Assembly (NCBI RefSeq): GCF_000143415.4
Contig: NW_003314419.1
Coordinates: 13,969 to 77,968, forward strand
Reading direction: 5' to 3'
Length of the DNA stretch: 64,000 nucleotides
Source: Selaginella moellendorffii
Lineage: Eukaryota; Plantae; Lycopodiophyta
Part shown: one piece after another, positions 3,001-33,061 of the stretch
How the letters are laid out: the number at the start of each line of letters is the position of its first letter
Numbering within the stretch: the stretch's first letter is position 1
Position numbers and translations under genes: made by a program
The notes under the pieces: generated by a model
Told to the model about the DNA's origin: nothing
Seen by the model: only the letters and a program-made list of their open reading frames with translations
The model's database searches: none

Positions 3001-5000
3001 TATTGATGATGGATAATCTTTTCTCCTTGAAATGACATTTTTTTTAGATTGTAGCCTTTTGTATTGTGTGTAATGTTGTCTCAATCAGATTTTTACCTGT
3101 ATGTCATTATATTTATTTATATGTTTTCTTTGTTTAAATCTTAGACTATATCTGAGCTAACCAATAACTCAATCTAATTAGATTTTTTGAAGTGTGTGTA
3201 CTAAATATCATAAGATTATCGATAAAACTAAAGCTAATATATAAGATAAAATAGCTACCCCCATTCAACTCTTATATTTTAAGTTTGAAATATATCATTT
3301 TCTATAGTTACTACTTTATTTACTTTTTCAGTTTTAGTATATTTTCTGTTGTGTCTACTATATATGATCTTTGTACAACAAAATTATGTACTAATGTACT
3401 ATCGAATCATTCAAATACTTTTTGTTCTATTAAGGTTTCATTCTATAGATCAAAGAGTATGCTGAAATATCTGCTAGGAGATATAGCATGCCAAAGATAA
3501 ATAGATCTTCTTTTGTAATTTTACAATGTTAGAAATTTTGATTGTAAACAAGGTCCAATTTATCTTAATTTTACTACTCATCTACAAAGAAATGGACAAT
3601 AATGCAATTAGATAATAATGCAAGTGTTGGGGAAGATAAGATCATTATTTAATCATCATTTTATTTTTTTTTAAATTCAAAAATAAACATAAATAAATCT
3701 ATCTAGATATTCACACTACATTAAATGTGTTTAAAAAGAGGTATATCTGAAACCAATTATTATATTAGAGAGATAATCTTTGCATTAAGACAAACCTGTA
3801 ATAATGCTTTCAGATAAAACTATGGATTCCAATTTTAAAATAAATTAATATTAAATGTTTGAAAACTACTTACTGTTCAGCAAATATATGAAGGTGAACA
3901 TGATTACAAATTAACTTATTATCAAAATAATAATAATTTGAATATAAACATGAATCTAGCACAATACTGTGTAAAAATTAATTTTATTTCTTGTGAATAT
4001 GATAAATTAATTAATGTCATTAAAAATTTATTTATTTATTTATTTATAAATAAATATTAATTATTAAGCTTATTATTTGTCAGTAAAGAGTAACTATGGC
4101 ATTTTTATTCTCAATACTTCTTCATTTTAATTTATAAAAATTACATTGTTGATACTTATATATTATTATTATTAATATATTATTATTATCTTACTTGTTG
4201 TTCTTACTTATATATTAAGTACTTGTATCTTACTTATTGTTCTTACTGGTTTATAATGACACCTATGATGCGGTACACATTCTACATAATGAGTTTGTCT
4301 CTTTGCCTCGTTTGATAATTTCTGTTTTTAATAATTTAATTTTAAGTTTATATTTAAACTGAAATTTTCTAAATTTTTAGCTTTATATGATTTAAAATTT
4401 ATTAAAAACTTGCAATAGTTTTATTCAAGATTGTCTCTAGCCAATGGGCTAGAGATAATCTTGAATAAAATTATTGCAAGTTTCAAACTTTATTAAAGCT
4501 TTTGAAGTCATAACTTCCATAAAATTTTATAATTATAACTTCTAGCATGATATCACTTAATTATGATCCTGATGAAGCATAGTTTATTATATTAAACTTT
4601 ATTCCTAGCAATCTATACTTTTTTAATTGGGAGTTTTTTTACTACTTCGTAATCTGAATCTCTTTTCATGAGAAGTTCATTTAGACCACTCTTTTTAACA
4701 TTTTGAATTCTTGTTTCTATAAAATTTTCTTCTTATTCTATATTGTTTCTTCTCAAGTATTTTGTCTTTTCATCATTTAAATTTGATAGTAGTTATCTTT
4801 TATATTATAAGTTACAAATGTCTTACACACTCTAATCTATTGGTAAATTAAGTTCTGTATTATAGGTGTATTAGTATTATATATTTTTTAAGATATTATT
4901 AAGAACTGGATTTGATATTTGTATGTGTATAAGATAGCTTATACCTATTTCTCTATTGTGATGAGGTTTAATATAAATGTGGCAGCAATTAGGACAAAAT
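1..5000. repeat. AT-rich modular repeat DNA (Helitron-derived)
   Basis: ~2060-2720 is duplicated at ~2770-3390. ~1100-1390 recurs inverted at ~4450-4880. The same modules recur at ~24080-24490, ~44870-45800 and ~54620-57450. Confidence 0.75.
616..643 (+). mobile_element. Helitron 3' terminus (hairpin + CTAG)
   Basis: CCAGCGGAGCTGG hairpin then GCTAG|T; same motif as the end of the RepHel-bearing Helitron at 39467. Confidence 0.8.
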
Positions 5001-5528
5001 TTACTTAGTGGGTTTTGTGCAGAGCTCAGATAGTGAATCATCTACTTAGTGGGTTAATAGTAGATTTACGAGATTTGTCAGCAGGTACATCATCTGTCGT
5101 CATGTTTTCTGATTTCAATCATTCTTTAGTTTTGAATGCAACCGAGGTAGAGCTCCATTTCTGAGAGTTATGACACAACATTTAAGAACTTAGCTACAAA
5201 TGTAGATTTCCACACAAGGGTCACCAACTTGTCGCTGCTTCCGTCACTGCATGATGCTTGTGATTTTCTTGCTCAAGCTGGTCATGAGAAAAAACAAGAG
5301 CTGTAAAAGGCACAGCTTAGAATCAAAGCTGTAAGTCTCAGTAGCAACCAGTAGTAGTAACAAGGTAAGGGCTGATATTTCTAAGAAAGTTTCTGGTTTA
5401 CCTTTCTTGTGTTCAATGATTCTTTTGATCATTTTTTTGTTTCTTTTTCTTTTTCTTGGTGTCTGGTGCCTCACTTATGTTTTGTAGCCTTTTAAATGCT
5501 ATACAACACCAATCTAGTCTCCTACTAA

Positions 5529-5550
5529 GCTCTATTTCGTTAAAGTGGGA
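5529..5550 (+). repeat. Left terminal inverted repeat (22 bp)
   Basis: Perfect reverse complement of 17246-17267. Confidence 0.95.
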
Positions 5551-6205
5551 ATTGTCATTATCCCACTTGTAAAATAAGGTTTCCAAACCTTTATATAGTA
5601 TATAAATATAACAAAATTCAACTGCATTGAGGCACATGCCATTTTATTTTAAACAAGGAAATATCTACTCAATCACTTCTCCTCCCCCTGCCACTGCTTC
5701 ACCTCTCTCTTCTCCTTGTCATTGTCGTCCAATTTCTTTCCATCCTTTTAATATTGGCTCAGTTGCTCCAAGTCTAGGTGGAGCCCAAGTCCCCATTCAA
5801 TCTTTACTTTCCCCTTATTAATAAAACAATTTCGTAGACTTCCAATAACATGCTGTAACACTTCTAGTATAATGCAAATCCTCTCAAAGAATTGTCTTTT
5901 AATATTAATACAATGGCATGGAACCCCATGCCATAATAAGTTACATTTTTAAATAAATACATGCCATCTCAGACTGTTATTTTTTGCCTCCAACGCCTAT
6001 ACAATAATCTTGGAATTTCATCACTCTCCACACTATCAGGATTTAAACCCAATAGTAATGCCATCTCTTCTCTAATACATCCACGCTCATGTTCAGTGGT
6101 CGAAGAACCCATCCGGTTGAGTAGATTATGGAGATGCGGATAGTGCTTGGCTAGACAATATACATGCCATAAATGATGACTGGTGTCTGTCCGATCAAAT
6201 GGCTT

Positions 6206-6831
6206 CTAATATACCGTTCCATCTGCCATTTGGTTGATTTCTGCAGCCACCTCCTGGACTGCCCGGTTCTCTATCACCATCGCTCCAAGCCGTTCTGCAA
6301 GGTCCCCCAGAACATATGGTTTCTTCTCCCTAGTTTCCATACTGCAAGAGATGGGGTGCACTGCATATGTGTGCATGTTCGCTGCAGTTTTAATCGGCGA
6401 GTCATCGATGATGAGGATTTCACTTGACCTAGCAGTCCGGTTCATCACTACAGCCTCTGGCTTGACGAAGATGGGCTTGCTACCCCTCACATGGACCATA
6501 GTCAAGCAATCCTCCTGCGTTAGGAGAAAGTCAAATGGTAATATTACTCGCGTTTGATCGTGCATCATCTGTAGCAACGTTAATGCATTGTGGCGCATCA
6601 TGGATGTCCAAACTCCCAATTGCAAATTGAACCCGGCCCTCTGTTTTAAGTGTTGCATGGTCATTATTAGATCCCGTAGTTTCTCCCGTGTGATTAATGT
6701 GAATCTGTCTCTTTTGACCAACTTGCGACCGCAGGCTTTGGAGGGTGCAGTGACATTCGAGGACGAGCCACGCTCATGGGAGAAAAGGACACTGTTCAGA
6801 TCAAAAACGATATAGTACCTTCGCCGTGACT
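6206..6831 (-). CDS. FCP1/NIF-family HAD phosphatase domain (last exon of cargo gene)
   Basis: YYIVFDLNSVLF (motif I, DLN variant), GVWTSM, FLLTQEDC, KPIFVKP, ILIIDDSPIK. Confidence 0.8.
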
Positions 6832-8740
6832 CTGAAATGAAATGCGTCAGCATAAAAAATGGTACAAGTCAATTTTACCAACTACAATATTAGCGAATGG
6901 TGCTCCCGATGGTCGTTTAGAGGGTTTTGGTCGAGGAAACGTGAAGGGCGAAAATACTCTCCTCTGCAATGTGGGGTCAATCGCATCCGATGGCGTGTGG
7001 GCACATGCCATTTCAGCTGTAGACTTTGGTACAACTGGCTCAACAGTGGCATGGGGTGGTTCCGATGGCGTGTGATCACACGCCATTTCAGCTGGTGCCT
7101 CCGTTGGCAAAGTGGACATGACCGAACAGGCAGCAGGGGCGGTGTAGGGAGGTTCCAACGGCACGTAGTCAGACGATTGGGCACACGTTGAGTCCGTTGG
7201 AAATGAGGGTACGACCGGCTCGGCGGTTGGGGCGGCCTCATGCGGGTCCAATGGCACCTGGTCACCGTCAGTTGGATACGTGGACAAGATTGACTCAGTG
7301 GTATGGGCAGCATCAAGTGGAGCGTGGTCAGCTTGCTTGGCGTTGATATGGATAGTAGCCTCCACCAGCTCTGATGACTCTTGTAGACAAGTAGAGTCCA
7401 CTGGCGGATCCATATGCATGTCCAAATATCTCCCTTCGATTGAGATGGTATCCTCCCTACTGGCTACTAAAAACAAACTCATTAGCACATTGAATCGACT
7501 ATACTGTATTTACCATCAACTGCTATTGAGGAACTAGGACCGATATCACTTGGGCGCATTGCTGATTCTGAAGGATTGGACATACGTTTCGACCCTTGCT
7601 TGGCACTATCCTTCCTCGACACTAAAGGCTAGAGTTTGTATCTTAATTCAACTGAATAATCTCTACTTACCATTTGCTTTGCGACCTACATGGACAATGT
7701 TAGAAATGGTAAAAGGTTAGGAATGGATGTACTATTATTTACCTGATGGTTTGTTTTGTATGACCTTCCTCTGCTGCTCTTTGGCCACCTCAGGCTGGCC
7801 ATCGTCGTCATCATCGTCGTCGTCGTTATTGTGATCGTCACCATTGTGAGGACCATCCAAGTCCTCTTCGTCCTCCTCTTCTTCGTCCTCCTCTTCTTTG
7901 TCCTCCTCTTCGTCCTTCTGCTCTTCCTGCTCATTATCTTTCTCTGGCTCCTCATCCCCCTCCTGCATTTTTTCCATAGGCTGCTTAGGCTGGATGGCTT
8001 GTTCTTCCAGGACCATCTTGGGAAAATCATCTGGCCGAGTCTCCATCTCAAAATACAAGACATCCATAACCTGTTTTAGTGCGTGACCTAGGACCGTATC
8101 CTCACCCGACTGTCTTAACATGGTTTCTGCACGTTCTTGCACCCTTCGAAGACGACGAGATGAGAAAAACGTGGCCCTGACTTGAAAAGCATCCCTCATC
8201 CATTGTACCTCTCCATTGAGATTGGGGAAGGGGAGTCCGCCATAGGAATCTGAGTCAGGAGGTGGTGACCGCGAGGCATTACCTATCATCTTTTCGTTGC
8301 CCTTCTTCCTTTTCGAATCAAACGCCTCTGATCCCGACGATTGTCCAACGTGCTTTCGCTTTTTATGACCACTATCAGTTTGAGCTTGGCTGGTGCTTGC
8401 CTGTTTTGCCTTTGAAGAAGTGTCTCCTGCAAGGAATGGCATGAGACCACACGCCATTGCAAATATAATTTGTACCTCCTTTTTTCCTATTGCTTGTCTG
8501 TTTGTCCTTCTTCGACGCGCCATCAGTGCGCTTTTCAGTCCTCGTGTCTGAATATTCACAACGATCTATAATCAAAATGGCGTGAGGCCTCACGTGACCT
8601 TACCTTGTGCAGGTTGTGAGCTCGGCCCAACATGGGTATCTTCAACAGTAGTTGTTAACGCCGTTTCAGCATCTGGGGGTGGCCACACTCCTGCATACAG
8701 AGCTTGTGAGATAACATTTAAACTTAAAGTGCGTACTCAC

Positions 8741-9450
8741 CAGGTTCACAGAGAAGATACTGTTTTTCTTTGGCAACTGTAATTATATGCTTCATTGAAG
8801 TCACCTCTTTAATGGAGTTTGTCACCGCAACACACGGGACACCCTTGAGTAGTGCGGCTCGAAAGAATAGTCCGCCGCAGTTGTACTCGACAACGCATTT
8901 GCCCTTGGAGTTGGAAGCAGGTGCTATTGCGTTGAAGACCCAGCTGAGCATTTCCCATGCTGCACCTGGAGCTTTCTCTGGATTCGAAAGCTCCATAGCC
9001 GTCTTCAGTTCCTCAGGCACGGGTAAATTGACCTCCCTCAGATCAATTCGATCGGCCTTGTCGAACGAAGCTGGGAAGTCACTCCAGTCCCACTCTGCTG
9101 CAGGACCAATAACAAGGGCGAGTGTGAAGATGCGGACATTCGTCGGTATCTTCTTCTTAGCCATTATCCCATGGATCTCCTGCATCTCCTTGCCTTTCAA
9201 CCAAGCCTTCACCTCGTTCAAGGCCTTCTAGAACTTGTGATAGGATTCGGAGTCGTAGATCATATAGTGGACTGAAGATTCCACCTCCGCAAGTCCCACC
9301 ATTAAGTCAATGATGGAGCTGACTTCGTCTGCATGAGTGATCTCCTCGTTTGTGAAGTCCATCACACAAAAGATGTTCTTGACCTGCTCATCTCCGCGGG
9401 AAACGATGCTCCTCCACCTTTGATCCTCATCCGAATTCACGTATACCCAG
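8741..9450 (-). CDS. Degenerate beta-class N6/N4 DNA methyltransferase-like domain of cargo protein
   Basis: NPEKAP...WEMLSWVFNAIAP..KGKCVVEYNCGGLFFRAALLKGVPCVAV parallels HPTQKP..LL..LI...GD.VLDPF.GSGT...AA...GR..IG. NIFCVMDFT sits upstream where DPPY would be. Confidence 0.45.
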
Positions 9451-10112
9451 TAAGGTTCTCGATAGGCCTCTGCTGCGGGGTCGAGCTGTTTCTGAAGCCG
9501 GCGGTCGACATCCCTCTTAATGAAATTTGGATATTGATCCAACTTCTCAGCTTTACTTTTCGTGGCATCCCGCAGTAGATCGATGAACTTGGGGGCCCCC
9601 TTCACGTAGTCGTCGATGTCTTCATTTGACAACTCCAGCTCTTCCATCATCTCTTGCGTGGTGTCGATGCTCACCCTCTCCACGGCCACTTGCTCGAAGA
9701 TCCAATCCTTCAATAGCGCACGAGCTCTCAGAGTCGTGCACAAGTCCTCGTATGTCACAATATGGCCGGGAGTCATTTTGGTCTTGTTGAAGACTACCTC
9801 ACCACGTAGAAGAGCATTAGCCACTGTCAGAAGGTCGTCGTCGTCTAGAGACCGCGAGAAACGCAAGGCGTTGAGCTTCAAATCATTAGGCTTCCGGCCG
9901 TCCTCCACACCCATTGAGTTTAGCAACTCCCCGTCATGGTACCTCCTCAGCACATCTACCCATTTGTCAAAAATAACTTTTGTCGCGAGTACAATGTTAT
10001 GGATGCTGAGTGTGTCATTGACCCCCAGTGTTTTCGAGAGAAGACTCGAGAATTCCTGCAATGGAAATGGCGTGAGGCCACATGGTATGCCACATGCAAC
10101 GAGGCTTACCTG

Positions 10113-10640
10113 TCAGGCGCTAGTTGCTAGTGCACGTCCTTGTCCTGGTTTTTGTGGCTTATTCAGTTGAACCCAGAGCTTTCGTGTTCGTGCCAATGTC
10201 TCGTGCAGACCCGATTTGTAGCACGTTTCTTGCTTGACATTCTGCACGTGGGAGATGTATATGATAGATCGGAGGGGCGAGTTGCCTTTTATCAGGCGGA
10301 CAACTCTTGTCTTGAAGACTTTCTTCACCTCCTCACCCACCATAATATCCACAACTATCTCTTGCATCGCCAAGCTAGAATGCTGCCCGAAGACGGCATA
10401 GAACCGGATGTTCTGATCGTCCAACACCTTCCTATTGATCAAGTCTGGAAACCTCGTCTCGCCCTTCATTGTTTGGTAGTAGGGGATCACGTCTGCGATG
10501 TCGAGTGTTACTGGACTTGCCAGCATCTTCTGCTTCAGTTTCTCCACCCACTCATCAGATACTAGCCTGTGGTTGTATTTGCTTTGGATGTCGATACGGC
10601 TCACGTCGATTGTATATACTTTGTTGGAATAGTAACAAGT
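10113..10640 (-). CDS. ParB/Srx-like N-terminal domain of cargo protein
   Basis: IDVSRIDIQSKYNHRLVSDEWVEKLKQKM...FYAVFGQHSSLAM...ISHVQN follows the ParB-fold pattern, with GQH in place of GxHR. Confidence 0.6.
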   Translation of the reverse strand, partial: TCYYSNKVYTIDVSRIDIQSKYNHRLVSDEWVEKLKQKMLASPVTLDIADVIPYYQTMKGETRFPDLINRKVLDDQNIRFYAVFGQHSSLAMQEIVVDIMVGEEVKKVFKTRVVRLIKGNSPLRSIIYISHVQNVKQETCYKSGLHETLARTRKLWVQLNKPQKPGQGRALATSA

Positions 10641-11874
10641 ACTATTATCTGCGACGATTTTTGCTGCTTCTTCTTGCTCTTTCTGCTCTTTGTGGCTCTT
10701 CTTTTTGGTGGGTGTAGTGTTCGAACCCGAGGCAATGGCATCACCGAGTAGCTTCTTTTTTGGAGCAGCAAAGTCGGACGTCGGCTTGAGCTTGACCACC
10801 CTTTTCTGCTTCGGGGTAGTTTCCAGATCGACCCCCTTCCCCTTCGCTTCGCGAACTGGAGGCACTCTCAACGGCGTGGGGCCGCATGGAGGCACTCTCA
10901 ATGGCGTGGGGCCGCATGCCATTTTCAGGGTCACATAGGAGTATATTCCTAGGATATTCTAACATGCGTGAGATTTTTTTGAGTTTTCTGGAGATCCAAC
11001 CGTTAGATCGCAACTAGATTTTACAGAATGGTATACAATGTCTTTCTTGATGACCCTGTGGCAAATGTTGCGTGAAGAAACATGTGGCAAATGCTGCGTG
11101 AAGAAAGATGCCCTTTCTGGGCATATGCTGTAAGAGGCAGATGCCGAGCAGATGTATCTCAGGCTAGCGAAGGGGACAAACGAAAGCTAGCTATAAACAT
11201 GACGGGATGCAAATAGATTACTAGGCTGGTCCTGCGAAAATCAAAAACCATAATTGAAAACATTGAAAATGCAAAAAGAAAGGTTTATAATATTTTTGAA
11301 TTTTAAGCAACCAAAGGAATGCAAGTAGGGCATGTGTTTGTAAGTTTAAAAATGCCTCAACCACTTAAATTCCCAAGTAAATAAAGCTATTTCTATTTTT
11401 GGTACAGGTAAACTTTATAGCGTGTGGGCTCATGCAATTTTGAACCCAAAAATGCACCAAAAAATGCTCGACTAGCATTATTCTTTGAATGGCGTGTGGC
11501 CTTATATTGCCATAAATGGACGTACACACACAGCATAATTATTCCTTTACACGGCGAATAATCTTGGCGCGGATCGCTGACATGGCATGGCAAAGTTCGA
11601 ATCACTGACATGGCACAGCTGGATTGAGGCAAGGACATGATGTGACAAAGTTCAACCTCCGACAGCAAAGTCTAGAAGCTACTCAGTTTGAAATTTGTCA
11701 GAGGAGTCATAAGATCTGGTTTGTCAGAGGATTTGATGACGTTCAAGCGTGTGTTATTTTTGAATTCTTGAACTCATTCCTAGGTCTATCATTTTTGTGC
11801 GCCGTGTTCTTGGTTCCGCTGAGCGCAGTGAGCGCTGCTTGTGTAAGCGGCGTTGTGAGCTGTGGTTTATGCGT

Positions 11875-12010
11875 CTACGAGCGGTTGCAGCATTGCGAGC
11901 GCCATTGCGAGCGGCAGTTTATGCGAGTGGCAGTTTGTGCGAGCGGCGCTACGAGCAGTTGCGGTGTTGCGAGCGGCGCTACGAGTAGTTGCGGTGTTGC
12001 GAGCGGCACT
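11875..12010 (+). repeat. GC-rich GCGAGCGG-core tandem repeats (30-bp unit) in the intergenic region between the divergent genes
   Basis: gcgagcggcgctacgagYagttgcggtgtt x2 plus partial and degenerate units. Confidence 0.8.
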
Positions 12011-12570
12011 GTCTTTGGTGTGGCTACTGCTTCCTCTTGATATTCGGCACTTGTGCTTCCTGGTATGTTCACCATGGAATGGCTTAGGACCACATTTAGA
12101 AATGGCATGAGGCCACATGCCATCTTGGGCCCTTGCAATTTCATGGCTAGCGTATTGTCATGTATGTTTTTACTTGCCTGCAGCTGTGTGTATATCAAGA
12201 TGGCATGAGGCCTCATGCCATCTTTGGCCCCTGCTAGCCTATTGCCATATTCCTTTTGAACTGTATATATTTTTGTATGGGTGACTAGTCACGCAGACGA
12301 AAGTATTTACAGGTGCAGCGAGGCAAAAGGAATATAGCAAGAGGGTAGCAGGGGCCAAAGATAGCGTGAGGCCTCATGCCATTAGTGGTACCACTAATGG
12401 CATGAGGGCTCATGCCAATTTTGTGAATGCGAAATTTCACGTGGGTGTCAATAGCATGTTTGAATAATAGCATGTGGCCTCATGCTATTGAGGTTGTTTG
12501 GTATGTTATGATTTAGGCCATTCTCCAATCATTTTTTGTATGGTCTTAACTTCTTTTCTGCACTTTCAGA

Positions 12571-15500
12571 ATGGCCTTTAGGGTTGGGGAAAAGGTTTAC
12601 ATTTTGAATGGTGGGAAGAGAGTTGCAAAAGGGACCCTTGTGTCTATGGATCGGAACTTTGTTATACACTGTCAAAGGCTTGGGGAAGGTAATGCTGCTG
12701 TATCAGTAGAGACTGTCTTCGATGGGAATGTGGTCGCTATTGAACGAGGAGAGATGGTCGTCGAGGTAAATGTTGTTGTTGCCTTGAAAAATCTTCAGAA
12801 GAAAGCAGATGTTGGGGACAGCGCAAGTGCGACGCATGTTCCCTCCGTGGATCTTAAGAACCGTGCTACATGGATTCAGGCGAAGGTGTTTCTAAACAAC
12901 CCCGAGGGGGAGGTGGTAGCTGAGGGCTTAGCCACAATTGTCGATCCAAGAGATGCGGTTGCTAATCAAGAATTGGGCTGGGATGATATTGGAGTTGCGA
13001 TTTTAGAGGTTGTTGACACAGAAGAAAACAGTCTGACTATTGGAAGCATTGTGCGGTGGAAATTGAGGCACTTAGTGTTTGAGAATGTGAAGGATTCACA
13101 ATCAAACACCACTACAACTGATGACAGAACATCTCTTCATGGGAAAAAAAAGTACACCTTCCTAAAGCGCAGCCAAAGGGATCTGAGCAACGAACCGAAA
13201 AGGCAGAAAATGGCGATGGAGGTTCGAATGGTCTCGACAGTTGCTTGTTGCAAGAGGAGGTGCTGTCAACATGCTGATTGGGATGCTATTGAAGAGGAGA
13301 GAGCAAAATACAAGACATTGTTCTGGAAGGCAGCTCGCAATTTTGTGTATGAGGCATTACGGTCATCTGTTGATGCTTCAGAACATCAGGTGGGGGGCAT
13401 GGTCTTCTAGAGGGGTTTGGTCTGCATGAAGGCATGGAGAATCATTTATGGAGTCCCTCGAACCACATTCTACAGAATCAAAATTGAGTTCGAGGAACAA
13501 AGGGTTCAACAGGCAGTCCATGGGAACGACGGTACGCACAAAACCAGGGGTCATGTTGTATATGGAGAGGCAATCTTCAAGAGGTTTGTCGAGACATGTA
13601 GCGAGCAGCAACCACATAAAACCCGCCTCTTGGAAGATGGAACACGAGACACCCAACGAGTTCTCCCTTCCATGTATACCAAGGGGGCCATATTAGAAGA
13701 TGTGAATCGGGAACTCCAGAGTAATGGCTACAGGAAGCTGAGCTAATCTAGATTTAGTAGATTGTGGAGCAACAGGTTCAGGGATGTGAGTATAGGAAAG
13801 TACTCCAGCTTTTCAAAGTGTGATGAGTGCACTGCTATCAAAATGGCTTTGTCGAAGAATTCTTGCAGCGCTCAAGAGCGAGAGACGTTGGTTAAAAGGC
13901 GGCTCGACCACAACATCGAGCAGAGAAGCTGCAGGACTGCATATTATCATAACAGGATTCTTTCCATGGAGAGACCTGACTCTTACCTCTGCATCATCCA
14001 CGACAAAATGGACCAGAAAAAGACGTGCTTACCTCGACTCAATCCTGCCCCCAAGGCAATCTCTTCATCCATGCAGCTGCCTATGTCTCTGTTTGGCATA
14101 ATCGCTCATGGGCATGGTGCCCAGAACTATGGGAACTTCTTTGTACCTCTATGAGGTGGCGGGGGTGCAAACATGATGATTGCGTCCCTAGCAAAACACT
14201 TAAGGTCTCTGCAAAGTGCGCAGACTGAGCTGAACGGCCAACCCTTGCATAAGGTCCTTGTCGATCGAACCCCATACAGGGTTCAGCTGGAGGAGGAGCA
14301 AAGGCTTGCAGTATCGCGTGGGGCCCCATGCCATCCCAGTGAATATGTTGGCCGTCAGATTGTAGGGTTATCACGTGAGGCCTCATGCCATTCCGACGAG
14401 GCTGGTCGCCCGGTGAATGCACAGCCTCATCCAAACGAAGCAGAATCTCAAGGAAGTTCTTGCGGCCGATGTGGCCTTCCACCCCATCTTCTGCTCCAAA
14501 CAGACAATGCTGGCAGTGAGAACAAAAACATGTACGTCTTCGCGTACTTGGCGATGCTTGTTGCCAAAGGCATATTTGAAACGGTTACACTTGGCTTTCT
14601 CATGGTTGGGCACACTCATGAAGACGTCGATGCCATGTTCAGTCACCTAGCAGAGTCCCTCCGGCGATCCAATGTCCTCACCCTCCCACAACTCTACGAT
14701 GAATTCCAAAATTGCATCAAAGGCACTGTTGAAGCTGCACTTCTGACAGAGGTTCCAGACTTTAAGGGGTTTGTAAGAGGCTACATCAGGGACGGATCCG
14801 AAACGCTGATTGGCCACTCCAAGCCTCTTCAGTTTCATTTCAGCATGTGTGACGGTGCTCCAGTGATGAGGTACATGAGAGAATGAGACACAGTGTGGCT
14901 GCCAGTGGACGGCATTGAACTCTTCAAGAGAGATCCCATAACTGGGGAACCTATGATTCCTCAGGGTTCCCCACGGCCGATGCACCCGGATGGACTCAAA
15001 GACCAGGAAAGTATAGTGGCCGGGATTAGACAGCATATTGCCTTCTGGAAGAGGGGGTTGGTGTTTGGTGGAGAATCTTATTTTCAGAAGTGCAAGCCTT
15101 TGCTCGAATACTGGGAGAAGATTATATCTGCTATCCAAAATGGGCCGGTTGTATATGAAGAATTGGAAGAGTCCTTTTGGCCAGAACCCAGAGCACTAGA
15201 TAGTAGCGGAACAATGTCCTCTAGAAATGCAGTGACAGATAACGATGTTGAGGATCACTATTGTGGGCCGAGGAACAAGAAGCCGGATTCAGCATTCAAT
15301 CCAGTACAGGTCTGCAAAGGAATGGTCGTGCTTGTCAGACCCAGTAATAAAAAACAAATGATATGGGTGGGGCGCTGCATCACTGATGCAGAGGAGGACG
15401 CGGAAACTAACTCCTTCAATGTAACTGTGGAGTGGTTCAAGCCAAGTTCCGGATATACGAAGGATTGCCTAGAAAAGAGATGGGTGCTGAATCCAAGGGA

Positions 15501-15709
15501 TCCCAGCATGAGCATATCGGTGGATAATGTTGTGCATGGTTGGATGCGGAAGCAGAGTGCCACCATCACCTTGCCAGACCATGCAAGAGATGCAGCAAGA
15601 GCATTCATAACCCGGGTTCAAGGTGAGATTCATTAATATTCCTTTACTAAGTTTCTAATGTATTTTATTTCAAGGTGAACAATCCGAATCTGAATCAGAG
15701 GAGGCGTGA
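12571..15709 (+). pseudogene. Sola-like DDD/E transposase (~1030 codons) with 4 in-frame stops
   Basis: ORFs 12571, 13417, 13762, 14173 and 14893 share one frame and are separated by single stops (13408, 13744, 14152, 14884). Motifs: VCMKAWRIIYGV, FSKCDEC, HDKMDQKKTCLP, QTDNAGSENKN, GFLMVGHTHEDVDAMFS. Likely final intron 15623-15674 then a short exon to TGA at 15707-15709. Superfamily assignment is less certain than the transposase call. Confidence 0.82.
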
Positions 15710-17245
15710 TGGCATGTGGCCTTACGCCATTCCTAGGTGAGATGATACAAATAACAAGTATAAATTCTTAGTTGTTCTAGCAAATCTTACTTAAAGTTTA
15801 AGGTGAACAAGCCGAATATGAATTCATCGGATTATTATAACAAATTGCAAGGTGATGGCATGAGGCGATACGCCATTTGAGAGTGGTAGCCATTCCTATA
15901 TGAGGTGAGTGAAATATTTATTAGAAATACCTCATTTAATTGTGCACTTCTAAGTCTTGGTCCACTCAATACTGTTTGCATGTTTTTATTTTAATTCTTT
16001 CTCTAAAATGTTATTTAGCATGTGGCTTCATGCCATTGCTCTCCACAATCATGCATTGAATTTTTCTATCCTTGCATAATACTTCTCCATATATATAGCA
16101 TGTGCGCACATGTGATATGGTTCATTAGGCCTGATATAGTGTGTGAGGTAAAACAAAGATGATGTGACATATGCATTTACCAATCACACGTGCATAAATC
16201 TAATAATATGGCGTGTGGCCCATATTAATGGCACATAAACCCATATTGTGGGCTTACGTGCTTTATGTACCATCATTCCCTTGCAGTGTGTGTGTTGGTT
16301 TCCTTTTATAACACAACGAACTCCATATTTTAGGGTGAAGAGCATTCTCATGGCAAGCACAAAATCTGTAAGTGAGGCAGAAAAGGAGATGGAGAAGGAG
16401 ATAGGTGAAGATGTAGAATATATAAGTCTTCCAAACTCCCCGTACTATACTCCAGGTGATCATTTTTCTGAACAAATGGCAACATTAACAACTATCGAGA
16501 ACGCCCCAGTAACGTCAGAGACAACAATCCAAAGCAAAACAACTGACCCGGAGAGAAGGATGATAGTACCGCTGAGAGTACCAAAAAGGAGGTGTCCACT
16601 AGCGCTTAGGCTTATAATGGCGTGTGCCCTCATGCCATTTACTTGATCACCAAATACCTTTTTCCCTTTGCACTAGTATATCTTAATACCGGTCTGAGAA
16701 ATAGAATGGCATGTGCCCTCAGGCCTTTTACTAAATCACCTTTGAAAGAAATGCAAGCCTCTATGTCGTAAAAAAAAGGTACTAGAGAAATTCCTTAATA
16801 ATATGAATGTTATTTAGTTTCATGAAAATACACTAAGGGTCAAATGAGTTAAATGACTTCTCCAGACTAGCAATGCCTCTTGCTACACCTTCACAATTAG
16901 ATTCGTTAGAAAAAGATAACATTGAATAATATCTAAATGTTCTCACCATTAAGTTATATATCTGGCTAATAGGAATGACGTTCATCTTGGAAAGCTCACC
17001 ACACGCTCAATGAACAAACAAATAGTGTGTGCGCGCATGCCATCGCTTTTCTTTAGCTTCAGATTCGGCTTGTTCACCTTGACAATGAGATTTATTATAC
17101 AACCAGATGGACATAGTCTGGACATAAAGTCACCGCGCTAGTCACCATGCCCCAGATATGTCTAGCCCCTGGACAAAAAACATATAATTTCACGTCATTT
17201 TCAAATACTTGAAAATTTGTACCTAGTCCCATTTTACTGAATAAA

Positions 17246-17267
17246 TCCCACTTTAACGAAATAGAGC
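17246..17267 (-). repeat. Right terminal inverted repeat (22 bp)
   Basis: TCCCACTTTAACGAAATAGAGC, perfect reverse complement of 5529-5550. Confidence 0.95.
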
Positions 17268-17730
17268 ATTACTGCTCTTATTCCTCTCTACCTGATGACC
17301 ACTTGAGGTATGTGTAGTCTTTTCCTTGACATGCTTGCTCAATTCCTCATAATTTAGTTTATAAAGTTTTTCGGTAGTGCTGCTTTTTTCATTGAGAAAT
17401 TTCTATGAAGCTGAGGTAGAGCTCCATTCCTAAGAATTGTGCTTAAGAACTTTCATAGAAAGGTCACCAAACTGTCACTATTGCCATCGCTGCATGATGT
17501 TTGTGATTTTGTGGCACACTTGTCATGAGAAAAACCAGTTACTGCAGGAAAAAAATGACTAAAAAGGCATGAAGGACTTACAAACCTGGTAAAGCTGTAG
17601 ATTGGAATCAAAGCTGTAAGCCTCAGTAGCAACCTATAAAATAAACATGCCATGAGAAAACAACAAAAGAAATAGATTGAACAATTATAATTATAATTAC
17701 AATTTTTCAAATTGAAACTATTCTCTACTA

Positions 17731-24587: not shown

Positions 24588-27500
24588 TGTCGCAAATGTG
24601 ACTTCGGGTATCGAAAGTTACCTGTCAACCAGTCCTTACGGACACTCTTACCTTACTGCCACGATGGCAGGAGGTCGGTATTGCTGGTTCCCTTTATCGG
24701 CCCCTCTTGTTCAAGTGTTAGTTTACTGGGCTTAGCACCTATACTTAGCCAGATGGACATAAGGTAGGAACTCCTATATGTTTCTAGCTGAGCATACTCA
24801 GCCTGGCTCTTAGTTCTCTTTTGCTCTGTCTTGCACTAGCTTGACAAGAACCCTCGCATATTGAGATTGGTCCCTCAATATCGCTACATGATAGTTTACC
24901 GTGTCTGCCAAACACCCTCGCTATCATGCCCTTTGTGTTAGTCTCATTTCGGTCCCAAATGCTATTTATGGAAAGTGTCCAGATTTGCTCATTTGGCATA
25001 TCTACGGAATGTAGAAATCGTTCTGAACACAATGGTGTTCATCCCATGTCCAAATTCACAATCTAGGGACATTCCATATTTAGTAAGTTTCGAGCTTGTC
25101 CCAGAGACTAACTCCTGATACTAAGGGAGGCTTGGGGTGAAAGCCCAAAGCATGTGTTCCTCAAGGGGGGGGGGGTGGGCTATGGGGGGTTCCAAATGTA
25201 TATTAGGGATAGTGGGTAGGTCGGGCATGGCCGACCAACCTGAGGCATAGTCTAGCTCCCGCTTGTGTGCCTGTCCTTGTTCTGCGTCCGGCTTGGGTCT
25301 AAGCCCAAGTTCCACACCATGCTAGCTGGTGGAGTACCCATGTCCTTGCGTTAGGCCACCGGTATGCCGAAATAGCGCCAGACTCCGTTTGGCTCCATTT
25401 TGCGTGCTGGTTCTAGCATTGGGATGCTGGTTGCTCCAGGACTGTTCCAAGTCGCTTCGGGCTCCTGTCCCTTCGCTCCTTGGGCTTTATGCTCGGGAGT
25501 TGCTCCGTGGTTCGGTTCCGTCACTCCTTGGCTCCATGCTTAGGAGTTTGGCACCGTTCCTTCGTTCAGTGGCCCAAGGCTCTGAACCTCGGGTTCCTGT
25601 GGACACGTGGCATGGACACGTGGCATGTGACACGTGGCATCTGTCACAGGGCACAAAGAGGGTTTAGGTTCCGCTTCGTGGTGTTATCCTATGGTAAATC
25701 ACCATAGGATAAAGGGTCAAAACCACGTGCGCTACATTTGGTATCAGAGGATGAGTCTCAGCGAGTACTATACAATGAGATTAGGCAACTAGTCTCGTTG
25801 CATACGCAGAGATGAAAACGATGATCCGAGTGGGTACACGTTTGGTGCAAAGGGTTCCCAATTGTTCCTTGGGTATGGATTTGGTTACCTTATTGTACTT
25901 TATGATATGAGCTTGAGCTTGGGCTCGCAAGAGGGATTGAGTTGTTCCATTCGCACGAGTTTGAGCTTGGACTCGTGAGTGAGGCACATTAGCAACTCAA
26001 GGTTACACTTTGAGTTGGCAGGATTAATGTTAGCCTATCGGTGGTTCCATAAGTTGTTCCATGTACCGTGGGTGAAAGTAAAACTTCCCTGAGTTTGCTA
26101 TGAGTGGCAAATAGGCTGGTCCGTAGCTGTTTAGCACGGCACTAGTGGATCCTTCCTAAGCATGATTACAAGTGAATCAATCAAGACTTATAGGGATTAG
26201 TTTATTGGCTCAAGTAGTCATTGTAGTGCTCTCTCATAAACTTTTCTTGGATTGGATTGAAGGCAGTGCGAAAGCAAGCTTGAGGTTTAGTCAAAGATGA
26301 GACCGAAAAGAGAGTCGTCAGGGACGAAGGATCAAACACGTAAATCATCTTCTCTTCTTGGAGAGATGATTTGCAACGAGGTGTGACTCATTGCTCGTGT
26401 TCACATTATGCAATCAAGAGTCCTTACCTTGATGCATGTTGGAGATGATGGTCTTACAAATGGTGAGTTGTGAGATGGATAGCGGTGAAACGTTATACCA
26501 TTTTGTCTAGGCTTGCTATGGAAGACTAGGGTTGCAATGCTCAATTCTTTTCTGAGGAACCTTGTTATTGCTCCTTAAGTAGCTTGGTGTTGGATTAGTT
26601 TTGAGTTTGGTCGGAAAGAGAGTGGCATGAGCTTGTCCGTGTTGTGAATAAAAGTTGGTGGTGTTAGGTGTTATAAATCTCTATCGATGGAGTGTGGCAT
26701 TTATGTTGCATTTTGTTGAATCGAGTTTGCACTTGATACTCACATAAACCTTTGAAGTAATGACATAGACATTACTCGTGGTGTTGCTCAATTGATGATC
26801 AAATCATTGTGATTTCCATATCATATCCATGTGATAATGAGCAATGTATTTACGAAGTTGCTTGGTTAAACGATGATCAACCCCAAAATGGTTGATGGTG
26901 AGGCTAGTCTACTTGCATGAAGTAGCATTGTAGTAGCTTTGACTGGATTTTCAATGGTGGTCCATTATGCTAAGTTTAAGTTACTTCCTTGTTTCCTTGA
27001 GAGTTTGCTCATTAGGTGTTGGAAAAGGGTTGTAGCATTCATTTGCTATGGCTTGTTGGTTTATCCGTTATCACTTGGAGTAGATTGTTGGATGGAAAAA
27101 GTGTGTAATTAAAGCATTGATATCGCTAGCACTTGTGTTAGTGGAAATGGCATTGTTGATTCGAGTGATGAGGAATTTTCCTTAGAGCTTGATTTTCCAT
27201 GTCATTTTTCTTGTTAGTGTTTTGGCTTCACATTGGATCTTGAAGGTGATTGAAGAAAAGTGTTAATGCAATGTGAATATCCGAAGATGTGGTCTTCGTG
27301 ATCAAGCTTTAGATATTCATTTTGTGTTCTGCGGATGTCAGAGTTGGATGTCGAAAGAATGGGCAGAAAGATGTTCGAGGCTTAAGCATACTATGGGTCA
27401 TGAGAATTTGTGTTGAGGTGAGCCTATGTGAAGTTGTTAAGTAGGAGGAAGTTGGTTGAGTCTTGAAAGTTTGCATTCTTGGACTGAGAGTCATTTTTTC

Positions 27501-30500
27501 TCTAGGATGGAAATTTTCCACAAATTTTCTTATACTTTTCTAATTGTTGATCTGTTATCATTTTGTCCGAAAACCATTCCATTTTCATAAGCTAGTATAA
27601 ACTAGTGAAAGGGTTGGAGTTGACTTCGGTTGGCTTAGACCTTAGTAAGTAGTTTATATGATACAGTCTGAAAGGGATGTTGACTTCTGGGGCTAAGGCA
27701 TTTAAGTTGGATAGAGTCTGGAGTTGGTATAGAAAAGTGGCCGTTGCACTTTTCTAAGAAGGGTGACCATTGTGCCTTTCTTTTGTAGCATTATGCTTGG
27801 TGGCAAGTTGCACCTTGCATTTTGTTAAGACTCTATGAGAGTAGTGAGCTCTCACTGATCTTGACTTGGTCTTGGTGGCTTTGCGCCTTGGCTGAGGATG
27901 GTGATGTTCAACTTAGTTGTTTGAGTTTGAGATGTTGGTACCCGTACTATAGCTTTGTCTATGAAGAGGTTGTGTACTGATATGGATCCATCTCATGGTC
28001 TTCACTTTAGTTTCGGCTGAGTGTTGATCATGCATAGCTAGCCTCTTCAAGGCATGCTCAGAGCTAAATGCATTAGTGAGCTTATCGCAGTTGAGTTGGA
28101 TTTGAGTGGTCATTTAGTTCATGCTTGTATATGAACCTTTATCTCGTACTTGGGGTATTATGTTCATGTTGGACAAGTGTGTAACTCAATGGTATGAGTT
28201 AGTGTTTGGGTCTTGTGAAAGCAAGTTGAAAAAGTGATGGTTAGTTGCTTTGTGACTAATGATTGCTTGTAGACTTCGTTGAGGACTGTTTGACACTTGC
28301 TTCGCTCGATGAACATTTAGCAGTGATGGGTTTACTTTACCGGATGGTGTTGCGGAGGATCGTGTCATTTGACTTACATAGGTTTTCCATGTTGGCATGT
28401 TGACTCTACCTCTGTTGATATCATTTGGTTGCGTTTAGTTCATAGTGTTGGATTTCATTAAGTCTTGGACGTGGTGATTCACTCCTTGATGAAGTGTTAT
28501 CTGTAACTGAGTTTTGCTGAAGGATTGGTCTCAGATACTGACTAAAGTATCTTCGACCTTGGTTAGTTTGGTTGCTAGAGAGCTTTAAGTGGTGATACAC
28601 TCATGCTTTCTTTTAGCTTTGTTCTAGTGTTGGTGGCATTGAAGTGATGCCTTGGTGTTGACATTGTTGATGTTGGGATTTTAGTGAAATGAAATGTCTC
28701 TCCATAGGATTGATATTGAGTGTCATTAGTCTTAATGAAAATAGTGTTGATGATTTAGCTATGACTTTGTGTTATTGGCATTCGTGCATTTGCTAGTTAG
28801 CAACTGTCTTAACGTTCACATGAACTGAGTGGCAAGTTTGAGTTAGTTGTGTTCTAGACGAGATTGTTTAGTAAGGGTTAAGCTTTGGCTTTTCCTTGAA
28901 AAGTGATTCAGTCATGGATTATGCTAGCTCTACAAGCGGAAGAGTTAGTGATTGATATTGGAAGGTTTGAATCTTTATTGGATTTGAGTTGGAATATATC
29001 GATCATTGATGATTCTTCTTATGCTTGCTATGAAGTGAATTACGTCTTGCTATAGATGGATTCATGGAGGATCATTTGGTGATCACTTGTCGAGCATAAC
29101 TTTGTTATGCTTAGCTTTTGGATTGATGCAGGCATGCTCTTCATTAGCTTTACATTATGAAGTTTAGCTTATGGATGTGTTGAAGAAGATGTTGTGAGTT
29201 GCACCATAATTTCTTCTTTAGCATTGAAGTTAGTTCATGTGAGACTTATGATCATTGTTAGGAAAGACTTGGCTATAGACTTCTTCGAGCTTTTGGTTCT
29301 TTGAGTTTTATGCTCGTTGTTCCATTTGTTAAAAGTCGTTAGGGAAGGCATTTTGGCTTGTTAGCTTCGATGAAGTTAGTATTTGCATCTGGCAATCATT
29401 GGTGATGATTAATTATCATCTAAGATAGTGGATTATCCTTGTCAAGGGTTTTGCTTGATTGTTGTTGATATAGAATGATTTGCTATTCTTCGGGGTAGTG
29501 GATTCTTTCTTAGACGATGATTATGCATCTCTTTATTGATGGGATGATTGATGATCTTTCGTGATAGTTAGTTATTCTTTTTGATAGCTTTTGGCTTTTC
29601 GCAATACCACATGTTGTTTGTGGTTTGCTCTGGATTGGTCTCTTGGGTTTGAGACATCAATAGGATGTTGCTGACACTTGCTTAGGCAACTTAAGTTCCT
29701 TAGTATTGTTGACTGGGATCTATTTGGATTGGCTCGTGTGATAGTTGACATGACCGAGTGTTTGTTGGCCATGCAACATTCATTCTATTCTGTTGATTAT
29801 TGCTCGAGTTTGTTTTGATAGATTAGAATGTTATTTCCTCCAGGTGATACATTCGCGAGCATTTTGCTTGCTTGTCAATGATACTTGGTGTTCTTTGAGT
29901 TCCCTTTTCTAAGTTGTTTGGCATTCTATCTGCAATCTTTCATCCGAATGTGACTTCGAGTATCGAAAGTTACCTGTCAACCAGTCCTTACGGACACTCT
30001 TACCTTACTGCCACGATGGCAGAAGGTCGGTATTGCTGGTTCCCTTTATCGGCCCCTCTTGTTCAAGTGTTAGTTTACTGGGCTTAGCACCTGTACTTAG
30101 CCAGATGGACATAAGGTAGGAACTCCTATATGTTTCTAGCTGAGCATACTCGGCTTGGCTCTTAGTTCTCTTTTGCTCTGTCTTGCACTAGCTTGACAAG
30201 AACCCTCGCATATTGAGATTGGTCCCTCAATATCGCTACATGATAGTTTACCGTGTCTGCCAAACACCCTCGCTATCATGCCCTTTGTGTTAGTCTCATT
30301 TCGGTCCCAAATGCTATTTATGGAAAGTGTCCAGATTTGCTCATTTGGCATATCTACGGAATGTAGAGATCGTTCTGAACACAATGGTGTTCGTCCCGTG
30401 TCCAAATTCACAATCTAGGGACATTCCATATTTAGTAAGTTTCGAGCTTGTCCCAGAGACTAACTCCTGATACTAAGGTGAAAGCCCAAAGCGTGTGTTC

Positions 30501-31070
30501 CTCAAGGGGGGGGCTGTGGGGGGTTCCAAATGTATAGTAGGGATAGTGGGTAGGTCGGGCATGGCTGACCAACCTGAGGCATAGTCTAGCTCCCGCTTGC
30601 GTGCCTGTCCTTGTTCTGCGTCCGGCTTGGGTCTAAGCCCAAGTTCCACACCATGCTAGCTGGTGGAGTACCCATGTCCTCGCGTTAGGCCACCGGTATG
30701 CTGAAATAGCGCCAGACTCTGTTTGGCTCCATTTTGCGTGCTGGTTCTAGCATTGGGATGCTGGTTGCTCCAGGACTGTTCCAAGTCGCTTCGGGCTCCT
30801 GTCCCTTCGCTCCTTGGGCTTTATGCTCGGGAGTTGCTCCGTGGTTCGGTTCCGTCACTCCTTGGCTCCTTGCTTGGGAGTTTGGCACCGTTCCTTCGTT
30901 CAGTGGCCCAAGGCCCTGAACCTTGGGTTCCTGTGGACACGTGGCATGGACACGTGGCATGTGACACGTGGCATCTGTCACGTGGCACAAAGAGGGTTTA
31001 GGTTCCGCTTCGTGGTGTTATCCTATGGTAAATCACCATAGGATAAAGGGTCAAAACCACGTGCGCTACA
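24588..31070 (+). mobile_element. Full-length non-autonomous LTR retroelement (LARD-like, gypsy-related)
   Basis: LTRs 24588-25736 (TG...CA) and ~29947-31070 are highly similar. PBS TGGTATCAGAG (tRNA-iMet) at 25739. 5-bp TSD CCTAG at 24583-24587 and 31071-31075. The 4.2-kb interior has no long ORF. Confidence 0.93.
25601..25640 (+). promoter_or_regulatory. Tandem G-box/ABRE motifs (CACGTGGC x3) in the LTR; x4 in the 3' LTR at ~30936-30986
   Basis: ggacacgtggcatggacacgtggcatgtgacacgtggcat. Function untested. Confidence 0.55.
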
Positions 31071-31589
31071 CCTAGGATCTAGGAGACAAATGCTTTGGGC
31101 TTTCACCCTCAAACTCGGACTCGGACTTGGACTTAATTTTGGTCTTAGTCAAAGCTACTACAATGTTACTTCTTGCAAGTAGACTAACATCACTATCAAC
31201 CACTTTGGGGTTGATCATTGTTTAACCAAACAACTTCATAAACACATTACTCACAGTCACATAGATATGATTTAAGTATCATAATGAATTAATTATCAAT
31301 CAAGCAATACCATGAGCAACACCTATATCACTACTATAAAGATTTATGTGAGTACTAAATGCCATCTCAATTTCACAATTGCAACATAAATACCACACCC
31401 CACCAATAGAAATTTACAACACTTAACACCACTAACTTTTATTCATAAGACACACAAGCTTATACCACTCTTTTTCTAATTAAACTCAAAACTAATCTAA
31501 CATTAAATTACTCAAGGAGTAATAATAAGATTCCCCATAAAAGAATTAAGCATTATAACCCAAGTCTCCAATAACAAGCCTAAACAAAA

Positions 31590-32770
31590 TGACTTGATGG
31601 CCATATTGGCTCTGGCCTTCTTCGGGTAGGGACATTCCCTCGAGAAGTGTCCCGCTTCGCCGCAGTTGTAGCATACGTTGTTTCCCACGCTGCTATACGA
31701 CTTGACCTTCTTATCCGTGGTTTGTCTTTTTTCGCTTGACTCCCCCACGTACTCGCTCGCTGGCCACCGGATTTGCCTTTCCGGAACCCCGAGGACTCAT
31801 TCTTAGAGAAACTCTTCTTGAATTTCCCCTTGCTATATGTTCCCCTCGGTTTGGCCCCTTTGTGAAACGTGGATCCCGACCCCGTCGTGTTCCCCTTTCG
31901 CAGGTTATCGTTGAAATGCACCTTGATGGCCACATCCAACGCTTCCTTGTAGTTGGTCGGGTTCCAGCGCATCACCTCACCGCGAGCCCAGGTTTGCAAA
32001 CTTGATATAAAGGCATGGAACGCATCCATATCTCCCATGTCTGTGACAAGTATCCTCTTTGCCATGAACCCATTCACATATTCCTGGATGGTTCCAGTCT
32101 GCTTCAGCCTACTCAGCTCATCTCTCAGATGCAGAGTGGCATTCGGAGGAACGTATGTTGCGCGGATCCTCGCCTTCATCATGTCCCAGGTGGCCACCGG
32201 TCCTTCGTTGGCCTCCGTTGTTCTCCACCAAGACTTGGCATTATCTGCCAAGTATGGTTTTGCACATGGGACCTTCTCCGAGCTCGGTAACCGCAACGCT
32301 CGGAAGTAGTCCTCCATATCGTAAAACCAATCCTCCACCACCTTATAGTCATTCACTCCCTTGAAGACCGGTGGGGGATTTGGTTTGTACTTGGGAACTG
32401 CCTGAGGGACTGATTCCACTTCGGTCTATTCGACCTTGTCTGGTTTTGCCTCAGTCCCTGCCGAAGGGTCCGCACCTTCTGCGCTGCCAGCATCCGCAGT
32501 CTTTCGCTTTTTCTTCCGCTTCTCGTCACGCTTTAACTTGCGTACGAGAGTCTCCAGCAGGGCATTGGTCTGTGCTAACTGTCCTTCTAGCACGTCCAAT
32601 CGAGCCTTGGACAACCGAACCTCGCCACCGGACTCCTGTTTGGAAGTTTCCTCACTAGAGTCCTCCTCATGCAAGGATTCCTCATCCATAGCCTCTTGTT
32701 CAACCGAAGGCTCCAGCTCTGGCGGAGGTTCCGTCTCCGCCTGGGTTCGCTTACGCCCTGCCCTTGCCAT
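31590..32770 (-). pseudogene. gag: Ty3/gypsy gag (capsid + CCHC zinc knuckle), truncated, no pol
   Basis: PPVFKG...VEDWFYDMEDYF...AKSWW...LKQTGTIQEYVNGF. CYNCGEAGHFSREC lies in a shifted frame. In-frame stop at 32426. Confidence 0.9.
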
Positions 32771-32829
32771 CTCCCAGCAATCCGCCTCTATCCTTCGCTA
32801 GAACTGAGGAAAAGGCTCTGATACCAAAT

Positions 32830-33061
32830 TGTAAGCCACAAATTTTTCCTTTCCAATTTGCCAACTTACCTCGTCTATCCGTCCAACACCGCCTTGGCTT
32901 TTGCTAAGTTCCCTTGCCAAGGTTCTCGCCTATGGTACCAGCTCCTACTTGGTCTCAGCTACTCACTGCACGAGCAACGGAGTGTTAGCCATCCATCCAC
33001 GGATTCCCAAATCACTCCCAATCCCCTCCCCGGGTTAGACTGGACTTAAGGTTCGGCTACA
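32830..33061 (-). mobile_element. Short (232-bp) LTR flanked by a PPT-like tract upstream and a PBS downstream
   Basis: Minus strand reads GCGGGGAG|TGTAGCC...GGCTTACA|ATTTGGTATCAGAGC. Confidence 0.75.

Follow-up and report, generated by a model that had tools for sequence, protein, structure and literature searches.

ParB proteins bind palindromic parS sites, and fusions of ParB with methyltransferases are common in phages (PMC12704722). Two recent algal genome papers have proposed transposon-encoded ParB-like proteins that bind and modify the DNA of their own element; the available portions of these papers, to which our statements about published systems are likewise limited, contain neither a defined site nor a test (PMC12477816; bioRxiv 10.1101/2025.02.11.637652). 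The accessory gene of Sola1-1_Ec32 from Ectocarpus has ParB-like and N4C/N6A methyltransferase domains, and its product was proposed to bind and modify the element's own sequence (PMC12477816). Inverted-repeat arrays beside the ParB-like gene of the Bostrychia Plavaka element PAG3 were proposed to be its own binding sites (bioRxiv 10.1101/2025.02.11.637652), and one of the two papers considers VANDAL to be the only proven case. Both the protein architecture and the idea of self-binding are already in print for algal transposons. Here we report on 64,000 nucleotides of Selaginella moellendorffii (contig NW_003314419.1, positions 13,969 to 77,968; the window, with positions counted from its first letter), in which a Sola1-like DNA transposon of 11,743 bp, 5527-17269, carries 23 copies of a 22-bp palindrome. 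The best reading of the palindrome is that of a site for a dimeric protein, and we slightly favor the view that it is the parS-like site of a predicted ParB-like accessory protein, which would mark the element's own copies.

The pattern ATGGCRTG-N6-CAYGCCAT was scanned over the whole window, with expectations obtained from 100 shuffles. With up to two mismatches 20 matches were found, every one at 5913-17043, where 0.04 were expected; with up to three, the sites at 5621, 8577, and 16095 bring the number to 23. All lie inside 5527-17269, and the other 52 kb of the window, including its other repeats, have no site at up to three mismatches. The 6-bp spacing (8, 5, 7, and 3 sites at 0, 1, 2, and 3 mismatches) is the sole enriched one among spacings of 0-12 bp; the other spacings have no match below two mismatches, and the matches at 11 bp (two and eight, at two and three mismatches) are likely offset matches to the same 6-bp sites. 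A position weight matrix scored the 23 sites, from which it was built, at 15.8-36.5 bits and the best match elsewhere in the window at 5.6 bits. An earlier note on this DNA had proposed the fixed spacing, the restriction to one element, and a perfect copy at 12200 that extends to 28 bp; within the window these proposals are borne out, the last one exactly (12197-12224, where the symmetry stops).

The same note had described conserved 8-bp arms around a spacer of free sequence. The six spacers it quoted are all present, but their sequence is constrained. Symmetrizing the 46 half-sites gives the half-site ATGGCRTGWGS, and thus the full motif is the 22-bp dyad ATGGCRTGWGS/SCWCAYGCCAT. Position 10 of the half-site is G in 42/46 cases and, at 1.4 bits, equals the arm positions, so that conservation is not confined to the arms and the supposed free spacer is the constrained center of the dyad. 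Position 9 is A or T in 38 and position 11 is G or C in 42 of the 46, and the information content at flanking positions -1 to -3 is 0.1-0.4 bits. Positions 5-6 read CA (29), CG (15), TG (1), or CC (1); C5 is kept in 45 of 46 half-sites and the purine beside it, R6, is tolerated. The earlier description of a CpG toggle with a single case in the opposite direction stands, that case being TG at 17022, but its argument from biased CpG decay is weakened, since CA is more frequent than CG and the asymmetry need not mean biased decay from a CG ancestor.

The sites are listed here relative to the two divergent genes of the element, a predicted accessory gene at 6206-10922 (minus strand) and a transposase gene at 12571-15636 (plus strand). 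Three sites are in tiny introns of the accessory gene: 8436-8457 in the 49-nt intron 8427-8475, 8577-8598 (three mismatches) in the 38-nt intron 8566-8603, and 10067-10088 in the 54-nt intron 10056-10109, which is seen as a gap in homologues. The site at 10901-10922 overlaps the predicted start codon of this gene, and six more are located between the genes: 11417-11438, and a cluster of 12102-12123, 12200-12221 (the copy with the perfect 28-bp extension), 12361-12382 (in an arm of a 59-bp inverted duplication), 12397-12418, and 12467-12488, the last being 83 bp ahead of the transposase ATG. Nine occupy the outer regions. These are 5621-5642 (three mismatches) and 5913-5934 in the left subterminal part; 15709-15730 and 15855-15876 downstream of the transposase; 16015-16036, 16095-16116 (three mismatches), 16617-16638, and its local duplicate 16706-16727 in the right region; and 17022-17043, the only TG variant, in the right subterminal part. 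The linker exon of the accessory gene has 6990-7011 and a local duplicate of it, 7065-7086, and an insertion of the transposase has 14313-14334 and 14370-14391; this insertion is hypervariable, with 8% column identity versus 48-52% in the blocks on either side. A degenerate site at 11489-11510 has one good arm (10.9 bits), and similar remnants are at 10871 and 16208. Coding sequence makes up 63% of the element yet holds 5/23 sites (p 7e-5), and 3/8 of the accessory introns contain a site (p 0.009). By their flanks the 23 sites fall into 18 independent groups (five redundant), with common flanks in three small clusters, so that local duplication, the explanation against which the earlier note had set its own, accounts for only a few copies.

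Related elements have palindromes of their own. A single metagenome scan provided 80 related loci in 57 clusters, found through the transposase. The window motif is absent from the 928 kb of these loci (best score 12.3 bits), but many of them carry one of six other palindromes; with that of the window, there are seven unrelated palindromes in the lineage. Motif A is TRGTGGCCACYA, with no loop between the arms, and motif D, present in L031, L032, L044, and L012, is an extension of A. The other palindromes are YCACGGGY-N4-RCCCGTGR in L011 and L036, TTGGCCATATGGCCAA in L001, an array of AATCTAGCA-N2-TGCTAGATT in L016, and an odd-centered one in L070. Tandem palindrome arrays occur in relatives. 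The table of motifs by elements is diagonal; its patterns were derived from the very loci on the diagonal, and the off-diagonal zeros are independent of the choice of pattern. A FastTree tree of 59 rows was built from 44 loci picked from the 57 clusters (short ones were omitted) and 15 proteins. In one clade (Shimodaira-Hasegawa support 100) 31 of 34 rows have two or more sites of motif A or D; the row of the window sits on a long branch, and its position is unsure. The relatives' palindromes track the transposase tree. They are also largely confined to the elements: a right end could be recognized in 21 of the 33 loci that bear a motif, and in these 79 sites are found in the 83 kb next to that end on the inside and 4 in 102 kb on the outside. 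The 11.3-kb element of L008 has the same overall plan as that of the window; with an AA terminus and an ATAT target site duplication (TSD), it has 31 sites inside and none outside. Its NIF-like gene is on the strand opposite to the transposase, in divergent orientation, and a NIF-like segment occurs there in tandem copies (3487-5366 of that locus).

A dyad that extends to the center, is kept where it is tolerated, and is replaced by another dyad in each lineage fits an element-encoded dimeric protein that co-evolves with its site, and we consider it probable that some element protein reads the site. Of the candidates we prefer the ParB-like protein, since repeated palindromes are what ParB proteins read and since sites are found in the introns and at the start codon of the accessory gene. 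This predicted gene has nine exons and 1441 codons, with two premature stops and eight GT-AG introns of 38-57 nt, intron 1 of which shows as a gap in homologues. Its product has, in order, a ParB-like domain (about aa 95-255; 10131-10640, minus strand) with a GQHS motif, a helical region, a beta-class N6A/N4C methyltransferase-like fold with a degenerate motif IV (8741-9465, minus strand), an acidic linker, and a NIF/FCP1-like (HAD) domain encoded by the exon at 6206-6831 (minus strand; E 1.7e-5). DxDxT is the motif of NIF/FCP1-like domains; here it is replaced by DLNS. A HMMER search for homologues gave 10 matches, of which P0067 and P0071 were spurious and were dropped; the named homologues are from Selaginella, Diphasiastrum, and Riccia, which points to a seed-free land plant as the probable host. 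Word-indexed homologue searches found nothing, and phage tblastn and PDB sequence searches gave nothing meaningful. Two of the homologues of the ParB-like domain, P0069 and P0070, have another N-terminal domain and end soon after the ParB-like domain, so the partners of this domain vary.

The nearest language-model (ESM) neighbors of residues 95-269 are DUF3723 (0.95) and ParB_N (0.91), and the neighbor of the frame at 8727-9227 is N6_N4_Mtase (0.91). A phage comparison returned one weak ParB/Sulfiredoxin row (E 0.01). An AlphaFold model from a 22-row alignment had a mean pLDDT of 50. Its residues 287-480 form a confidently modeled helical region without a clear fold match for a central helix-turn-helix. 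For residues of about 487-720 each of the top 11 fold matches was a beta-class amino-methyltransferase, with Z of 8.4-10.7 and an rmsd of 4.0-5.9 across 175-230 residues, and Foldseek found the same fold at E of about 1e-3. The catalytic motif IV, (D/N/S)PP(Y/F/W), is DFTN here and is held by 0/22 aligned rows. The S-adenosylmethionine motif I is VVEYNCGG (IIDIFSGG in Riccia), which keeps the acidic residue and GG and changes the canonical spacing. The loss of motif IV in all 22 rows and a Box II that reads GQH(S/T) indicate that the protein probably joins a non-canonical ParB-like domain to a pseudo-enzyme.

Several observations weigh against assigning the palindrome to the ParB-like protein. 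The assignment of this domain, which is likely non-canonical, rests on the language-model match and on motif inspection, and the matching cluster has the family annotated on 35% of its members, with 126 shared features. Profile searches of Pfam, PHROGs, NCBIfam, and PDB with the domain gave no match. Its pLDDT is below 50 in the AlphaFold model and 35 when folded from a single sequence; a homodimer prediction (score 0.01) speaks neither for nor against a dimer. Box II is GQH(S/T) and not GxxR in 6/6 distinct sequences that span it, and without the arginine of GxxR a CTP clamp is doubtful. The nine-exon gene model is a prediction, and one run guessed to be RNA crosses a predicted accessory intron without a gap. 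A ParB-like remnant was found in only 1/80 related loci (L031, E 0.01; best of the reversed null 1.2) and a NIF-like gene in two lineages among them, most of these loci being too decayed, short, or interrupted for the accessory gene to be judged. No motif was found in L002, L003, L072, and L080, and only one weak site in L004; these contigs are 2-6 kb and mostly coding. The spacing of the sites along the element shows no significant evenness (18-23 points, p 0.31-0.58). Finally, motif and transposase tree agree through common ancestry, and the agreement does not single out a binder.

Assuming that the ParB-like accessory protein is the reader, it would bind as a dimer with one half-site per subunit. 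Tolerance at R6 (and R3) would allow a methylated CpG to be read like TG, so that silenced copies could still be recognized; with the invariant C beside the tolerated purine 6, methylated and deaminated sites may be read alike. By analogy with VANC, the bound protein might then shield or reactivate the element, by anti-silencing or by promotion of transcription or transposition. A methyltransferase fold without its catalytic motif is more likely to bind or flip bases or to recruit host factors than to write N4-methylcytosine or N6-methyladenine (4mC/6mA). More tentatively, and with considerable doubt, one may imagine that Sola1-like elements of land plants use a phage-derived self-recognition of the ParB/parS type, in which each lineage has its own palindrome of 12-30 bp about every kb, even in tiny introns, a ParB-like pseudo-methyltransferase loads there and spreads to keep the element unsilenced, and protein and site switch specificity together. 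Such a system would represent a second, independent origin of VANC-like anti-silencing, from prokaryotic parts, with a ready set of orthogonal protein-site pairs.

The rival that survives best, although we think it unlikely, assigns the palindrome to a dimer of the transposase, or of an N-terminal fragment of it produced by splicing in the manner of Spm TnpA, with end pairing or self-activation as the purpose. The window, L001, L008, L011, and L016 have clusters of sites in subterminal regions and directly ahead of the transposase, and all palindrome-bearing loci were recovered through their transposase. Its N-terminus has weak Transposase_23 matches (E 0.017-0.036; 6.6e-4 in P0004), and TnpA and the AtMu1 transposase are described as binding clustered family-specific motifs (bioRxiv 10.64898/2026.08.24.746577). 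However, the terminal inverted repeat (TIR) of the element is without the motif, sites are kept deep inside the element and in accessory introns, and binding of the TnpA type is, according to the same source, terminal.

Considerably less probable are hairpins or cruciforms formed by RNA or by single-stranded DNA, and tiny inserts that copy themselves, in either case without a protein reader. The three introns barely longer than the motif would suit them, as would the copies made by local duplication (5/23 redundant) and the tandem arrays of relatives. Compensatory change between the arms is not seen, however: among the window sites, R in the left arm shows no covariation with Y in the right arm (Fisher p 1.0), and neither do the arms of the clade A motif across 179 sites (p 0.88). 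Positions 10 and 13 are symmetric although they could not pair in a hairpin loop, and the clade A motif has no loop. The absence of covariation together with the central G..C pair that cannot form in a hairpin favors recognition of the duplex. Most copies, moreover, have neither flanking duplications nor common flanks, and they are excluded from flanking DNA.

That the palindrome serves a transcription or chromatin factor of the host is more improbable still. A YY1-like reader would be one example; its consensus contains GCCAT, which is present within the arms, and the best copy is flanked by AAG/CTT; however, YY1-like flanks are not enriched, the window's other repeats are free of the site, and one factor could hardly explain seven unrelated palindromes in a single transposon lineage. 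That the palindromes are a neutral by-product of recent local duplication, as the three clusters with common flanks might suggest, is very improbable and largely refuted by the 18 independent flank groups, the avoidance of conserved coding sequence, and the recurrence of the pattern with different words in relatives.

The limits of the transposon are given by TIRs, a TSD, and read-depth steps at both ends. The left TIR (5527-5550, plus strand) begins with AA and includes a 22-bp perfect core (5529-5550); the core of the right TIR (17246-17269, minus strand) is 17246-17267. TACT flanks the element on the left (5523-5526) and on the right (17270-17273), both on the plus strand. Contigs of the sequencing runs X1-X3 show the empty site with a single TACT, which fixes the 4-bp duplication and the ends at 5527 and 17269; right ends of other copies fall at 17267-17271. 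The host repeat around the element, with 76%-identical direct copies at 5208-5362 and 17451-17647, also exists in empty-site copies. Summed contig depth, which is not copy number, is 5.6-8.8e5 over the element versus 1.3-1.8e4 in flanking bins. In run X1, 129/188 listed differences are G>A or C>T in the window copy, an excess that marks a young family decaying under methylation. The element is a DNA transposon of Sola1-like type, young and heavily repeated.

The transposase is encoded in one frame of 1021 codons with four premature stops and is of the DDE type, with DUF7869 (E 4e-41) and a weak Transposase_23-like N-terminus. DDE-type motifs are conserved in 29 homologues, the named ones being from Riccia, a coral, and amphioxus; the motifs HDKMD, QTDN, and GHTHED are shared by 18-19 homologues. 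The Sola1-like label is based on the DDE transposase and on TIRs with a 4-bp TSD (TACT; ATAT in L008). Target sites are TACT here and ATAT in L008, and other right flanks start with ATAA, ATAA, and TAAG; the reported Sola1 preference is AWWT (PMC3845634), and the target of Sola1-1_Ec32 is biased to end in A (PMC12477816). Our literature search found no paper on DUF7869 and none tying it to Sola.

Several further observations concern the structure of the copies. In all four runs contigs depart from the window sequence at 10875, others at 11025 and 11058, and depth falls there in X4 and X14; the promoter and 5' end of the accessory gene (10875-11060) thus vary among copies. Loose ends at 11078 in run X1 read as plant-type telomere repeat. 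Contigs of runs X3 and X6 match the element solely over its final 44 bp (17226-17269), with a palindrome of the same type right beside, which suggests a divergent subfamily or a non-autonomous derivative that kept the end and the site. Another X6 contig joins the right end at 17269 to sequence from about 16864 within the element and is likely a self-insertion. The 59-bp inverted duplication (12200-12258/12324-12382, 92%) lies in the divergent promoter region, and each of its outer ends carries a site. Short repeated segments bounded by AG/GT, a site in each, occur at 15670-15910 and 16239-16646 with a 135-codon frame without a Pfam match, possibly as extra exons or a third gene. Elsewhere in the window, 24595-37216 is the remains of a long terminal repeat retrotransposon: two direct repeats of 1.14 kb (96.5%) lie at 24595 and at 29947, a gag of the Ty3 type occupies 31580-32425, and 36100-37216 is a related copy in inverted orientation. 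Six N runs (assembly gaps) in 41314-61950 give false long open reading frames.

In our literature search, which covered few subscription papers, there was no report of cognate, lineage-switching sites or of such sites in land plants. The young and heavily repeated family described here offers a precisely defined 22-bp candidate site, and the six other lineage-specific sites can serve as natural specificity controls; this makes the self-binding idea directly testable. If true, the idea would explain the spread of large DNA transposons in the heavily methylated genomes of seed-free plants and would offer new sequence-specific epigenome tools.

Among the known systems, Sola1-1_Ec32 (PMC12477816) shares with the element AA...TT termini, a 4-bp TSD, and a gene for ParB-like and amino-methyltransferase domains opposite the transposase. 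It differs in length (21.5 kb versus 11.7 kb here) and TIR (282 bp versus 22-24 bp), and the land-plant element has an extra NIF-like domain and has lost methyltransferase motif IV. The available text on Sola1-1_Ec32 describes no target palindrome ('palindrom' has 0 matches), and its FASTA supplements may show such sites. Bostrychia PAG3 likewise combines a ParB-like accessory protein with inverted-repeat units, but its host is of the EnSpm/Plavaka type, its effector is a 2-oxoglutarate (2OG) oxygenase, and its arrays adjoin the gene (bioRxiv 10.1101/2025.02.11.637652), whereas in the window the sites stand singly throughout the element, exons and introns included. Self-activation by Spm TnpA and AtMu1 transposase also relies on clustered family-specific motifs with an element protein as reader, but there the protein binds at the termini, to motifs other than 22-bp dyads (bioRxiv 10.64898/2026.08.24.746577). 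With bacterial ParB/parS (PMC12704722) the element has in common multiple palindromic sites and a ParB-like domain. Unlike that system, it has no ParA partner (no ATPase family was found among its open reading frames), GQH(S/T) in place of GxxR, a 22-bp site, and a eukaryotic intron-containing gene, and a role in segregation is unlikely. The resemblance to VANDAL/VANC (PMC5735166) includes an element-encoded accessory factor and short family-specific motifs in introns and in intergenic and terminal non-coding parts, which change from one related family to another and multiply in tandem. VANDAL is, however, Mutator-like, with an unrelated protein, 8-9 bp non-palindromic motifs, and a function demonstrated for VANC; no Mutator-type transposase or VANC-type Pfam family was found on either protein of our element. 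Although it is not a canonical ParABS system, an active amino-methyltransferase, or a member of VANDAL, the palindrome system of this transposon resembles parS sites or the target motifs of VANC.

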